A stretch of 64,000 bases of DNA. Origin: Parachlamydiales bacterium (GTDB lineage Bacteria > Chlamydiota > Chlamydiia > Chlamydiales > SM23-39). The notes beneath the pieces are model-generated. The model was not told the DNA's origin. It saw only the letters and a list, made by a program, of their open reading frames with translations, and ran no database searches. Each line of letters begins with the position of its first letter. Position 1 is the first letter of the stretch. Shown here piece by piece: positions 58,721-61,699 of this stretch. The position numbers were made by a program, and so were the translations under genes. The DNA lies in contig JBAZUK010000001.1 in NCBI GenBank assembly GCA_041661445.1, forward strand, positions 450,027-514,026, written 5' to 3'.

Positions 58721-61699
58721 TTAATTTTCTTTTTTCCAAATTGTATATCCATAATTAATATATTTGTCTTGATTTGCGAAATTAAATAAGAGTAGGGGCT
58801 TTTCTAAATGAGCTGTGGATAGTTTTTTGCAATAAATTGATAAAGCCGCAATCATTTCTATTCTACTTGATTCAACATGCCAAATACCAAGGGATGGGCA
58901 TAATAACAATTCATCAATAACGCTGTTTTGAGCTGTTTGAATGCATGCTTCTATAACTGAGTGTAAAATAAATATCACATTTTCGTTATTTAAAAAATTT
59001 GATGATGGGTTTATCCCTCTTATAAAAAGAGTTTTTTTCATTCCATTATTAAACACATATGCTTGAATATTACCGATAACACGGTTTTCTTTAGTTACAA
59101 GATTAAAATGAAAATGATCTTCTCTTTTAAATAAATTTAAATCAATTGCAGTACAAATTCCAGATGAGGCTTTTGCAAAAAAAGAAACAAAGTTTTTTGA
59201 TGGATAAATTTTTAAGATTTCCAGACCATTTTCGGTTTTGTTTTTAAAATAATAACACATTTCGATTGGATCCCAATCTTTACCATTAAAATTAATTTTT
59301 AAGTCATTAATATGAAAAGAATAATCTATTAATTGAGAAAAATAAGATTTTAATGATTCAAGGTCCATATTCACAGGTCTAAAAAAGTAATAGATTATTT
59401 CATGAAAAATATCTTCCGGATTTGCATTATTAAAAATTATATTTTGATTTTTTAGTTTTTCCAAAAATATTTTAATTACTTGATTTTGATCAATCAATTT
59501 ATTAGGAAGGATATAAAAATATAAACTTTTTATTGTACTTATAAATTCATTGACTAAATTTTCCTCATTAAAATGTTCATAAAAAAATTTAAAAAAACAG
59601 GTGGTAGATAGTCCTTTTTTTGCTGCATTTAAAAAAATAATATGAGTCTTTTCATCAATACTATTTTGTGAATTTAAAATGTCTGCAAGACAACTTATTA
59701 TATTGGAAAAATCGTTAGGAGCATTATGCAATAATATTTTTAAGAACTTTTTGATATACTCTTTGTTGTTTTCTTTTTCATTTAACAGAATGTTTTCTAA
59801 TTTAATGAGCATTTTTTTATGAAAAAGGAGAATTTGACGATAGTCAGTAATAATGCCCCAATCACATAGTTTTTTTAATATTGAAGCTTCTTTACATCTT
59901 AAAATGTCAACAACATGCTGATGTCCCAACAAAGACCATAAAAATTGAAAAAATTCATTTTTTGGCAAATTTAGTGTAGCTGTTTTTTTGTTAGGGAGAA
60001 GATCGATTAAAAAACAAACATCTTTTGAATCCATCGCAAAAAGAGATAAAGTTTCTTTAAATTCATCAATTATCGTCTCTAAGGAAATATTTTGTTTTGG
60101 ATTATTGATGTCAGGTTTAAATAATCCAAGAACCTCATCTTTTTCTAAACTTTGAATTTGAATTGTTTCATCCAAAATACGATCAATGCTGATGTCAAAA
60201 TTGTTATCTTTTTTTTCATAATCTTGTTTGTCGTAAATTTTATTTGGTACTTTTTCAGTTGGATTTAAAGATTGATTAAAATTGCTTTCTTTATGTTCAT
60301 TTTCTAGATCACGGAGATTAAGAACTATAAAACCTTTATTATGATTTAAAACACTTATATCATCTGTTGAATTCAACTTGTTTGATTCTAGAGAACAATA
60401 TCCAATAGATTTACCATTCAAAATTAAAAAACCGCTCTTATTTAACTGGTTATTATTTTGATTCAAAAATGTATCAGTAATAAAAGCTGCTTTTTGATCT
60501 TCTAAATTAAATAATTTATTGAGCCTGAGATAATAAAAAATACAACCCAAAGTTTGTTTCGAATGGTTTTGTAGAGTACTAATAGAAAAAAATATTACCC
60601 ACTTTGATTTAGCTTTAGTGATCTGTAAAATATCAGAAATTAAATTGGAAGGTAGAACTCTTCTTAAAGGGCCCTCTATTTCATTCGATGTTAAATATAA
60701 ATATTGAAGATTATTTTCAGTTTCATTTACCACAAATTCTCTTATTTTCTCAATATGATAAGAAGCATTATCTCCAAGATGAAAGGTTATACAATTAATA
60801 TGTTTGTTCTTAAAAAAAGCTAAATCATATTTTTTAAATAATTCAGTTAAGTCTAAAATTTTAATAGGGAATCTTATGTCTGGTGTTAAGGAACCAAATA
60901 ATGAAAAAGCTGTTTCTGATGATAAAAGCTCTATTTTATTAATTTTTTTTAGTCGATTAAAAGCTAAGATTATATTTATAATATTTTTTGACAAAGAGAC
61001 AAGTTCAGCAAAATTTGTTCCATTTATGCCGATTCTAATCTCAAAAGTTGAATTTGTTAAGGTTTCAACTTTTTTCATGAAATGAAAATGTCTATTAAAG
61101 CCATTTTTATTAATTGATTCCAGAGTTTTTAAGGATTCTAAATAAGAGATGTTTTTTTCTTTTGATTCATTATTTAAATTCTTCTTTTTTAAAAAAAAAT
61201 CGGCATCAATTTCTAAAAACATTTTTGATTTTAAAAAACCACGGATCTTATCAATCAAATCAGTGTAAAATAACATAAAATCAAAATTATTGTTTTTAAC
61301 TAAGAAATTACTATTGGTTTTTAGAATATTTAAAAATTCTTCATCTCTCTTCATTAATGATAAAAAAACATTTTTATCATCTAACAAATAACATTCATCC
61401 ACAACAATTTCGATGTATTTGTTAATCAATAATCTTTCTGAAGTTGCGATTTGTTCTCTTAGGCGTAATATTCCTGAAATATAAACCCGTTTATTAGTTA
61501 GAAAGTTAATAATTTGTCGATTTAGTATGTTTTTTTGGATTATAGCTTGTATATATCCAAATTGATCTTGCAATAATAAAAAGATAACATTTCCAATATT
61601 TCTACAAGAATTAACATATCCAGTAAAAAAAACTTTTTGATTGAGTTTTTTTTTATAGTTTTTTTCAAAACTAACAATGTTATGAGAAATGTTTTTCAT
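58721..61699 (-). CDS. Large (992 aa) protein with a degenerate AspRS-like N-terminus (OB fold plus motif-1 region) and a long uncharacterised C-terminal region
   Basis: [34 protein letters not shown] parallels E. coli AspRS [55 protein letters not shown] parallels the motif-1 region VRRFMDDHGFLDIETPML. Motif-2/3 catalytic signatures are not recognisable. Confidence 0.55.
   Translation of the reverse strand: [992 protein letters not shown]

Follow-up and report, generated by a model that had tools for sequence, protein, structure and literature searches.

GNAT-fold proteins are an established class of aminoacyl-tRNA (aa-tRNA)-dependent transferases, and proteins resembling aminoacyl-tRNA synthetases (aaRS), such as AcmF and SbzA, tailor natural products (PMC12945691). 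In ErdS, an aspartyl-tRNA synthetase (AspRS) is fused to a GNAT-fold transferase, and an AspRS-null mutant still made the product in vivo, at a lower level, from Asp-tRNA charged in trans (PMC7334510). Here we analyze a gene from a Parachlamydiales bacterium, located in a 64,000-nucleotide stretch of contig JBAZUK010000001.1 (referred to as the window; all coordinates are window positions). The gene is an intact open reading frame (ORF) on the minus strand (58721..61699) and encodes 992 amino acids (aa), joining an AspRS-derived part (aa 1-470) to a helical and GNAT-like C-terminal module (C-module, aa 546-992) within an aminocyclitol operon. The only identical entry on deposit is 'hypothetical protein WC688_02260 [Parachlamydiales bacterium]', and hypothetical is its only annotation.

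The combination of a dead synthetase, retained anticodon-site residues, fusion to an acyltransferase-like module and an aminocyclitol operon indicates that tRNA-Asp is probably used to tailor a small molecule. Our favored reading, to which we give a probability of roughly 40%, is that the pseudo-AspRS docks (Asp-)tRNA-Asp and that the GNAT-like domain transfers aspartate onto an aminocyclitol. The value is no higher because the donor is wholly inferred. A tRNA-dependent tailoring step had been put forward with reservations in an initial annotation of the window; this putative step is strengthened by the anticodon-site conservation, the GNAT-like domain and the synteny described below.

An AspRS-derived scaffold and its conserved anticodon site

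The initial annotation regarded the protein as AspRS-derived, and this is borne out, far beyond what chance would give, by an NCBIfam profile and by a Foldseek search with an AlphaFold2 (AF2) model, both of which recovered the relationship to the aaRS OB fold. Two strings quoted in support are present in the protein, one of 28 residues at aa 27-54 and LEIDADFF at aa 162-169. The OB fold of AspRS at aa 25-104 matched the Pfam family tRNA_anti-codon (PF01336; E 2.6e-6, 27.7 bits versus a gathering score of 27), and the Pfam scan of the N-terminal half found no domain beyond this anticodon-binding domain. The NCBIfam aspS model PRK00476 matched with an overall E of 1.3e-24. The match is split, aa 16-168 aligning with positions 12-165 of AspRS and aa 237-415 with positions 254-440, and the aspS equivalog cutoffs were missed (86.5 bits versus 443 for NF001750, and 64.5 versus 373.85 for TIGR00459). 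A phmmer search of the Protein Data Bank (PDB) sequences returned AspRS and AsnRS entries only (6wom, 1c0a, 1eqr), the alignment with 1c0a pairing aa 263-375 with 274-398. The full-length AF2 model, computed from seven full-length family members, had a mean predicted local distance difference test score (pLDDT) of 76 and an unreliable inter-domain geometry (predicted template-modelling score, pTM, 0.51). In Foldseek it matched E. coli AspRS (1eqr/1c0a) with E 8e-20 over ~580 columns at 14% identity, and archaeal AspRS, LysRS and AsnRS were far weaker than bacterial-type AspRS. Collinearity with AspRS had been noticed for the first ~170 residues, which is correct for that region but too short: it reaches ~aa 470 and comprises the OB fold, the hinge, the motif-1 helix, a motif-2 relic, the GAD insertion domain and a motif-3 relic. 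Based on sequence profile and fold, aa 1-470 are of class IIb, bacterial-type AspRS ancestry.

An exhaustive HMMER search defined the protein family, with 213 cluster representatives at E ≤0.001 and 149 at E ≤1e-10; word-indexed searches with the protein or with alignment A1 brought up, apart from the protein, no more than two giant repeat proteins. The first tier comprises six full-length homologues (P0004-P0009; 29-43% identity), the second ~30 proteins that have aa 545-990 in common, and the third >100 proteins that have only aa 828-950 in common, at the C-terminus of proteins of 800-1850 aa. All homologues are singletons from metagenomes. Among 37 homologues sampled, 19 contain an AspRS-type OB domain and six a recognizable class II core. 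The C-module is preceded by either a bacterial-type AspRS scaffold (with GAD) or an archaeal-type one, and some members keep the OB fold only. That both AspRS types stand before the same C-module argues that specificity for Asp or tRNA-Asp matters. One further protein, P0148 (482 aa), has an OB domain and matches the window protein only in the GAD-like region at aa 232-419 (E 2.7e-11); P0148 is either a fragment or an AspRS or pseudo-AspRS that has diverged and lacks the C-module.

To follow the active site, the family was aligned by MAFFT with the E. coli AspRS sequence, which was checked to be identical to 1eqr_A. The E. coli residues Q195, K198, R217, D233, H448, H449, E482, R489 and R537 are substituted or deleted in the window protein, and the same nine positions hold unrelated residues or gaps in all six full-length homologues. 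Motif 2, which reads FRDEDLRADRQPEF in AspRS, has shrunk to a stretch of 12 residues without an equivalent of R217. In the R217 column the seven full-length members have E, D, S, G, Q, T or S, and D233 is unconserved. In motif 3, GLAFGLDRL has become IVLNLRDL, and the R537 equivalent, too, is gone (D, G, D, S, S, L or A in the seven members). The QSPQ/flipping-loop segment of AspRS is replaced, and the H448/H449 segment is deleted. A 15-residue stretch stands where AspRS has 'VINGYEVGGGSVRIH'. The earlier statement that motifs 2 and 3 cannot be found was therefore right in substance: positional relics are left, the catalytic residues are gone, and neither motif is intact in the alignment with E. 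coli AspRS. Homologues with better-preserved cores (P0010, P0012 and P0017) have also lost R217 and R537 together with most, not all, of the other catalytic residues; P0010 scores 358 bits to aspS, P0012 and P0017 being similar in this respect, and among the positions still kept are D233 and R489 of P0010. In the archaeal-type P0014, motif 2 is deleted and a Tyr replaces the motif-3 Arg; the 'GGQRIH' strand survives. By established class II aaRS enzymology, formation of aspartyl-adenylate looks impossible because of these losses. Since the ATP- and aspartate-binding residues are lost, the term pseudo-synthetase used in the initial annotation is apt, and we predict from the sequences that the synthetase domain is catalytically dead across the family and binds neither ATP nor aspartate.

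The notion that this gene encodes nothing but the housekeeping AspRS, enlarged by a long insertion or extension, would agree with the collinearity over ~470 aa and with the lack of any other aspS in the 64-kb window. It has practically no probability, given that all ATP- and Asp-binding residues are lost, that the score of 86.5 bits compares with a cutoff of 443, and that the homologues are rare and confined to cyclitol clusters; with the catalytic residues gone, we rule it out. The missing canonical aspS says little, because the window covers only ~9% of the 690,897-bp contig, and we infer that this gene must exist elsewhere in the genome.

The anticodon site has had a different fate. Across the 34 OB-bearing members, R28, F35, Q46 and E93 (E. 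coli numbering; R33, F40, Q51 and E97 in the window protein) are each conserved in 34/34 sequences, and no other non-glycine column reaches 85% conservation. In an alignment with 1n9w, the counterparts of F35, Q46 and E93 in T. thermophilus AspRS2 are F33, Q44 and E76, and a preprint citing Charron et al. 2003 names these three as core anticodon readout residues (bioRxiv 10.64898/2026.05.03.722492). Assignment of the contacts to E. coli positions derives from the alignment with T. thermophilus AspRS2 and from a secondary citation. We take R28 to be part of the same U35-binding site, as seen in the AspRS-tRNA structures of yeast and E. coli.

Conservation by region was expressed as mean pairwise identity and fraction of invariant columns within the full-length family. 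The GNAT-like domain is the most conserved part of the protein (0.53; 31% invariant columns), followed by the OB fold (0.41; 14%) and the helical domain (0.33; 7%), and the catalytic-core relics are the least conserved of these four (0.19–0.23; 1–4%), with aa 171-262 at 0.19 and 1%. A conserved OB fold and GNAT-like domain beside drifted core relics indicate that selection acts to maintain anticodon reading and the C-module rather than the former active site. This pattern also bears on a possible role in self-resistance, in which the cluster product would target AspRS or tRNA-Asp, the pseudo-AspRS would act as a decoy that sequesters the compound or shields the tRNA, and the GNAT-like domain would inactivate the compound. 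Genes resembling aaRS in biosynthetic clusters classically point to resistance, the protein has a GNAT-like domain, and MccE-type acetylation of processed microcin C offers an analogue. We nevertheless judge such a role very unlikely, as the aspartyl-adenylate pocket, where inhibitors of this kind sit, is dismantled, the protein could not replace AspRS, and the strongest conservation lies in the anticodon site and the GNAT-like domain rather than in the old active site.

In the gene, the parts of the scaffold follow one another on the minus strand. The AspRS-type OB-fold anticodon-binding domain (aa 20-105; 61385..61642) is delimited by PF01336, the NCBIfam aspS match and the residue map. The hinge and the motif-1 helix relic (aa 106-170; 61190..61384) are recognizable from FLEIDADF, which aligns by MAFFT with FLDIETPM of E. 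coli, from the first NCBIfam stretch and from the AF2 helices at 119-158. The N-terminal half of the class II catalytic core (aa 171-262; 60914..61189) is degenerate according to the alignment and has low pLDDT at 172-201. The GAD-type insertion domain (aa 263-400; 60500..60913) is retained, as indicated by NCBIfam, the 1c0a alignment and pLDDT values of 80-90. Its GS..PD.R motif is intact, G269, P273, D274 and R276 are invariant, and Pfam GAD matches were found in homologues P0005 and P0010. The alignment with E. coli AspRS places a relic of the C-terminal half of the catalytic core at aa 401-470 (60290..60499), and a poorly conserved linker follows (aa 471-545; 60065..60289; 0.15 identity; pLDDT <50 at 468-500). 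The GC content of the fusion-gene region is 0.25-0.28, compared with ~0.29 for the window, and both are AT-rich. A 93-aa ORF on the opposite strand inside the fusion gene (60804-61085, plus strand) is probably a chance ORF in AT-rich sequence.

A C-terminal module with predicted GNAT topology

About 700 residues had been described as lacking any recognizable motif. This does not hold, as they contain the GAD domain with its GS..PD.R motif and, at aa 546-992, a conserved helical and GNAT-like module that is common to >140 other proteins. An AF2 model of aa 500-992, computed from a 45-sequence alignment, had a pLDDT of 94.3 and a pTM of 0.93. In this model the first domain (aa 546-800, ~505-800 in the model; 59300..60064, minus strand) consists of helices only. 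It is common to the ~30 tier-2 proteins and, weakly, to P0002. No known family matched this all-alpha domain, including those in Pfam, and no separate Foldseek match to it was seen among the best 50 matches. The second domain (aa 801-992, ~815-990 in the model; 58724..59299, minus strand) has GNAT topology according to AF2 and Foldseek and is the probable catalytic domain. The predicted order of its elements, b-a-a-b-b-b-a-b-a-b-b, fits the GNAT core b1-a1-a2-b2-b3-b4-a3-b5-a4-b6.

When the C-module was compared with the PDB by Foldseek, the best 50 matches were all GNAT acyltransferases, including NatD, NatC, AAC(3)-Ia/Ib, AAC(6')-Ih, SpeG, Gcn5 and HAT1. These matches were weak (E 0.011-0.13; target-normalized TM 0.35-0.5), and the alignments spanned ~100-240 columns, the aligned query residues not being reported by the tool. 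At the sequence level, Pfam searches with aa 431-992 gave nothing at E ≤10, neither PF09924 nor any Acetyltransf_* model. The profile of the GNAT-like core had only spurious matches among PDB sequences (glutaredoxin, E 0.12), and hhalign detected no similarity between the core and an ordinary GNAT encoded upstream in locus L001. As modelled, the GNAT-like domain is a new sequence-orphan domain family, whose GNAT membership applies at the structural level only. The CoA pyrophosphate motif Q/R-x-x-G-x-G/A, which follows strand b4 in GNATs, is replaced by an invariant R-G-x-N-P-S, with N897 at the position of the first Gly. Residues S834, K835, N836, K843, G847, C849, L856, Q879, R894, N897 and R946 are invariant through all tiers (alignments A3, A4 and A5), and H862, H864, N866, D853 and W940 are nearly so. 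The module is thereby densely set with invariant residues of polar and basic character.

These features leave some room for an acyl-CoA-dependent N-acyltransferase of the aminocyclitol, which would serve in tailoring or in AAC-like self-protection, with the pseudo-AspRS in a structural, dimerization or regulatory role, perhaps sensing uncharged tRNA-Asp. The Foldseek neighbors, among them AAC(3)-Ia/Ib, AAC(6')-Ih and SpeG, are GNATs that use acyl-CoA, the operon predicts a cyclitol with an amine as the acceptor, and the GNAT-like core also occurs in proteins without an OB domain. We consider this explanation possible but rather unlikely: it does not account for the 34/34 conservation of R28, F35, Q46 and E93 while the rest of the AspRS scaffold drifts, nor for two AspRS types before one module, and it has to contend with R-G-x-N-P-S in place of the CoA-pyrophosphate motif and with the lack of a Pfam match to any GNAT family.

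The core-only proteins stem nearly all from Patescibacteria/Candidate Phyla Radiation (CPR) metagenome-assembled genomes (MAGs) and in a few cases from gammaproteobacterial MAGs, and no AspRS-like part and no cyclitol genes were found at the core-only loci from the A4 search. Because the core occurs without the OB domain, it does not itself need the AspRS scaffold. In these proteins the core motif SKN..SFFAKA.AGICT..D..LF.R.DHFH.N lies at the extreme C-terminus of chains of 800-1850 aa (L006-L033; P0002, P0003 and P0040-P0152). The giant core proteins, mostly from Patescibacteria/CPR MAGs, carry the core behind TPR arrays or ~37-aa repeats, and the latter repeats are mislabelled 'RGCC' by Pfam in P0002 and P0003. 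Most members of the 149-representative core family are C-termini of giant CPR proteins.

The cyclitol gene cluster and a proposed role of tRNA-Asp

The fusion gene is the third of seven same-strand genes in an operon, upstream of which lies a divergent GrpB gene. The cyclitol operon named in the initial annotation is confirmed by homologues of BtrN and of an inosose aminotransferase and by an EEVS-like cyclase around the gene. The first operon gene (63065..63790, minus strand like all that follow) encodes a radical SAM/SPASM protein homologous to BtrN (2-deoxy-scyllo-inosamine dehydrogenase), identified by Pfam and by its sole PDB matches, 4m7t/4m7s (E 4e-46). After a gap of 42 nucleotides (nt) follows a DegT-family pyridoxal phosphate-dependent aminotransferase of the L-glutamine:2-deoxy-scyllo-inosose (BtrS) type (61712..63022; Pfam; PDB 5w70, E 5e-108, and 2c7t, E 2e-103), which is separated by 12 nt from the fusion gene. 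Another 12 nt lie between the fusion gene and a CN-hydrolase gene of the Nit1/Nit2 (omega-amidase) branch (57890..58708; Pfam and NCBIfam; NitFhit 1ems, E 1e-56, and Nit2 2w1v, E 6e-50). The next gene, 148 nt downstream, encodes an EEVS-like sugar-phosphate cyclase of the dehydroquinate synthase (DHQS)-like group (56485..57741; PDB 4p53, E 4e-67, 5tpr, E 1.5e-47, and 2d2x, E 4e-27) and overlaps by 32 nt with the gene of a xylose-isomerase-like TIM barrel (AP_endonuc_2 in Pfam; 55698..56516). The latter overlaps by 26 nt with the last operon gene, which by Pfam encodes an EamA/DMT transporter (54815..55723). Entry 4P53 is ValA, a sedoheptulose-7-phosphate cyclase (PMC4426668). The cyclase is closest to ValA (EEVS) and not to 2-deoxy-scyllo-inosose (2-DOI) synthase, as BtrC (2d2x) reached only 4e-27; a 2-deoxystreptamine pathway in the strict sense is ruled out, the cyclase being EEVS-like. 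A scan for promoter-like sites found 46, with 56.8 expected.

The gene neighborhoods of homologues were compared on nine contigs, namely the window and the loci of P0005, P0007, P0009, P0010, P0014, P0017 and P0021 (two contigs). On 9/9 of them (8 distinct proteins, GC 0.29-0.71) a DHQS-like cyclase gene lies beside the fusion gene. DegT, BtrN-like radical SAM, CN-hydrolase, TIM-barrel or cupin, EamA and methyltransferase genes recur in rearranged order, stop and start codons of the cluster genes often overlap, and the CN-hydrolase gene adjoins or overlaps the fusion gene in L002, L004 and L034. Conservation of these neighborhoods between distant taxa provides strong evidence for a role of the fusion protein in the cyclitol pathway.

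The clusters come in two flavors. In one, the gene immediately before that of the DHQS-like cyclase encodes a small cupin (L005, L034, L035 and L036; loci of P0010, P0014 and P0021). In the other, a xylose-isomerase-like TIM barrel follows the cyclase (L001, L003, L004 and L037; window and loci of P0007, P0009 and P0017). As a gene pair, cyclase and TIM barrel resemble eboD/eboE of the ebo operon (PMC5133447). The high-GC cluster of P0021 (L035, 1744-6583) additionally contains genes for a B12-binding radical SAM enzyme, a nitroreductase-family protein and a polysaccharide pyruvyl transferase, and a 734-aa protein without a Pfam match is encoded downstream of the methyltransferase in L035. These extra genes suggest a more elaborate product in the P0021 lineage. 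In the window, a class I SAM methyltransferase gene (54040-54810, plus strand) lies convergent to and directly after the EamA gene, and it may belong to the pathway because the P0009 and P0021 clusters hold methyltransferases of the same Pfam families.

In the scheme that we favor, the fusion protein would act as the tailoring enzyme in an aminocyclitol pathway of the C7 type, which starts from sedoheptulose 7-phosphate. The pseudo-AspRS (aa 1-470) would be a docking module specific for tRNA-Asp (anticodon GUC/QUC), a role that we propose because the anticodon-site residues of the OB fold are kept, and the C-module (aa 546-992) would be the catalytic part. The normal cellular AspRS would charge tRNA-Asp, and the C-module would then move the aspartyl group to the aminocyclitol, at either an amino or a hydroxyl function. 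This acceptor would be made by the EEVS-like cyclase, the Gln-dependent aminotransferase, the BtrN-type dehydrogenase and the TIM-barrel isomerase or dehydratase, and the EamA transporter would carry either the product or one of its precursors. When glutamine-dependent transaminases act, 2-oxoglutaramate is released, and Nit2-type omega-amidases hydrolyze it. This release provides a rationale for the Nit gene, whose amidase would remove the by-product of glutamine transamination; alternatively, tightly coupled as the gene is to the fusion gene, the enzyme could act on the product and trim it. Binding of tRNA-Asp, catalysis by the C-module, the cyclitol as acceptor and Asp-tRNA as donor are all putative elements of the scheme.

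Several observations weigh against transfer of aspartate from Asp-tRNA-Asp. The elements with which AspRS handles the acceptor end (motif-2 loop and flipping loop) are destroyed. The nearest structural neighbors of the C-module, weak as they are, are acyl-CoA-dependent enzymes including aminoglycoside acetyltransferases. In sequence the module resembles neither DUF2156 nor FemABX nor any other family in Pfam or the PDB, and no Fem protein was among its best 50 Foldseek matches. A single GNAT-like domain is predicted, compared with two in known aa-tRNA transferases. Giant Patescibacteria repeat proteins carry the GNAT-like core at their C-termini and lack an OB domain, and the invariant C849 together with a near-invariant His such as H862 could mean a different chemistry. 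Finally, no tRNA genes were found in any cluster examined.

Instead of being the donor, tRNA-Asp or Asp-tRNA-Asp might be the target, captured by the pseudo-AspRS, with the GNAT-like domain acylating the aminoacyl group or decorating the tRNA with a moiety derived from the cyclitol; this would amount to a new tRNA modification or to assembly on a tRNA. In favor of this, the residues of the anticodon site are conserved, the N-terminal TPR arrays and repeats of the other architectures look like target-recognition modules on a common catalytic core, and GNAT toxins that acetylate aa-tRNA are an established precedent (PMC9177977, PMC7595197). Nonetheless, we regard this explanation as unlikely, since the operon, with a DMT transporter as its last gene, resembles a small-molecule pathway, no antitoxin-like partner is present, and there is no known chemistry that joins an EEVS-derived aminocyclitol to tRNA. 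Moreover, position 34 would hardly be accessible to another domain if the OB fold holds the anticodon. It is still a little less likely that tRNA-Asp serves as a platform or target of the pathway, the dead AspRS gripping it by the anticodon and the GNAT-like domain linking the C7 aminocyclitol, as such or in acylated form, either to the aspartyl group or to the tRNA. If so, the locus would represent a tRNA-templated assembly of aspartyl-aminocyclitols or a previously unknown cyclitol-containing modification of tRNA-Asp, and the orphan core in the giant Patescibacteria proteins would mark a broad, unrecognized enzyme class.

If the aspartate-transfer mechanism is true, it would be the first aspartyl-tRNA-dependent step in aminocyclitol biosynthesis, and a clear case of a synthetase that lost all catalysis and survives solely to dock a specific tRNA for the transferase fused to it. 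The cluster itself, with EEVS-like cyclase, Gln aminotransferase, BtrN-like radical SAM enzyme, Nit amidase and fusion gene, is conserved and uncharacterized on contigs of 29-71% GC, and it is present in a relative of the chlamydiae, a group with little known secondary metabolism. Its product could be a new aminocyclitol of a glycosidase-inhibitor-like or antibiotic-like kind.

Elsewhere in the window, three genes (5439-18124, plus strand) encode a hybrid line of nonribosomal peptide synthetase (NRPS) and polyketide synthase (PKS) modules in the order NRPS-PKS-NRPS, with the domains A-T-C (1124 aa), KS-AT-KR-DH-ACP (1779 aa) and C-A-T-TE (1321 aa). This is a second secondary-metabolite locus within 64 kb, which is noteworthy for the Parachlamydiales. 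A UvrA of 1878 aa (29787-35423, minus strand) has duplicated UvrA interaction and ABC modules and about twice the usual length. A 298-aa Fic/DOC-domain protein is encoded a few kb from the operon (52797-53693, plus strand), and an 895-aa eukaryotic-type Ser/Thr protein kinase at 23553-26240 (minus strand); both are candidate host-interaction factors, as typical of Chlamydiae.

Comparison with known systems

The initial annotation drew an analogy with MshC, which likewise is an aaRS paralogue in a pathway with a cyclitol-containing product. The analogy is weak, as MshC is a catalytically active, CysRS-like enzyme of class I that ligates at the expense of ATP and without tRNA, whereas the protein described here has a dead class II scaffold, does not activate an amino acid and keeps the tRNA anticodon site. 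An MshC-like ligase is ruled out, there being no capacity for amino-acid activation; ErdS and LysX are closer.

Among aminocyclitol pathways, those of the butirosin/neomycin type (BtrC/BtrS/BtrN) and those with ValA/EEVS are the relevant references, and the neighbors of the fusion gene are clear homologues of BtrN, of BtrS-type and of ValA-type enzymes. Conversion of a ketone to an amine, oxidation of an alcohol and a second amination are a plausible pathway logic. In contrast to the 2-deoxystreptamine pathways, the cyclase resembles EEVS more than 2-DOI synthase, and glycosyltransferases are lacking here. We know of no aaRS-like gene in any aminocyclitol cluster described so far, and none was found in the literature searched, nor was a description of the fusion family. 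A 2026 review of cyclitols and aminocyclitols contains no occurrence of 'tRNA', and a 2026 review of aa-tRNA-dependent natural-product enzymes does not contain 'aspartyl', 'Asp-tRNA' or 'cyclitol' (PMC12945691).

The likeness to E. coli AspRS (1c0a/1eqr) concerns the fold, the domain order (OB, hinge, class II core, GAD) and the residues R28, F35, Q46 and E93; unlike that enzyme, the window protein has several deletions and ~520 additional C-terminal residues. AcmF and SbzA, and likewise VlmA, DhpH, DhpK, PacB and Orf11, resemble it in having an aaRS-derived scaffold or a GNAT fold, and they divert aa-tRNA to tailoring within their clusters (PMC12945691). In that group, however, the aaRS-like and GNAT enzymes are separate proteins and the GNATs are FemX-like and double, whereas here both parts are fused and the GNAT-like domain is single.

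The architecture is shared most closely with ErdS, the fungal ergosteryl-3beta-O-L-aspartate synthase, and with LysX (LysRS-MprF), in which an N-terminal class IIb aaRS likewise precedes a C-terminal GNAT-fold module. ErdS in addition is an Asp system and has a hydrolase gene next door (erdH). The synthetase domains of ErdS and LysX are, however, fully active with bona fide signature motifs, whereas the one described here appears dead across the family. Their C-terminal part is a double-GNAT DUF2156 domain, a type defined by a positively charged helix between the GNATs, in contrast to the helical domain and single, sequence-orphan GNAT-like domain without PF09924 found here, and they act on membrane lipids, whereas the fusion gene is set among those of a soluble cyclitol pathway. 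By analogy, the fusion protein would work in the manner of ErdS and LysX, but it is not a member of their kind.

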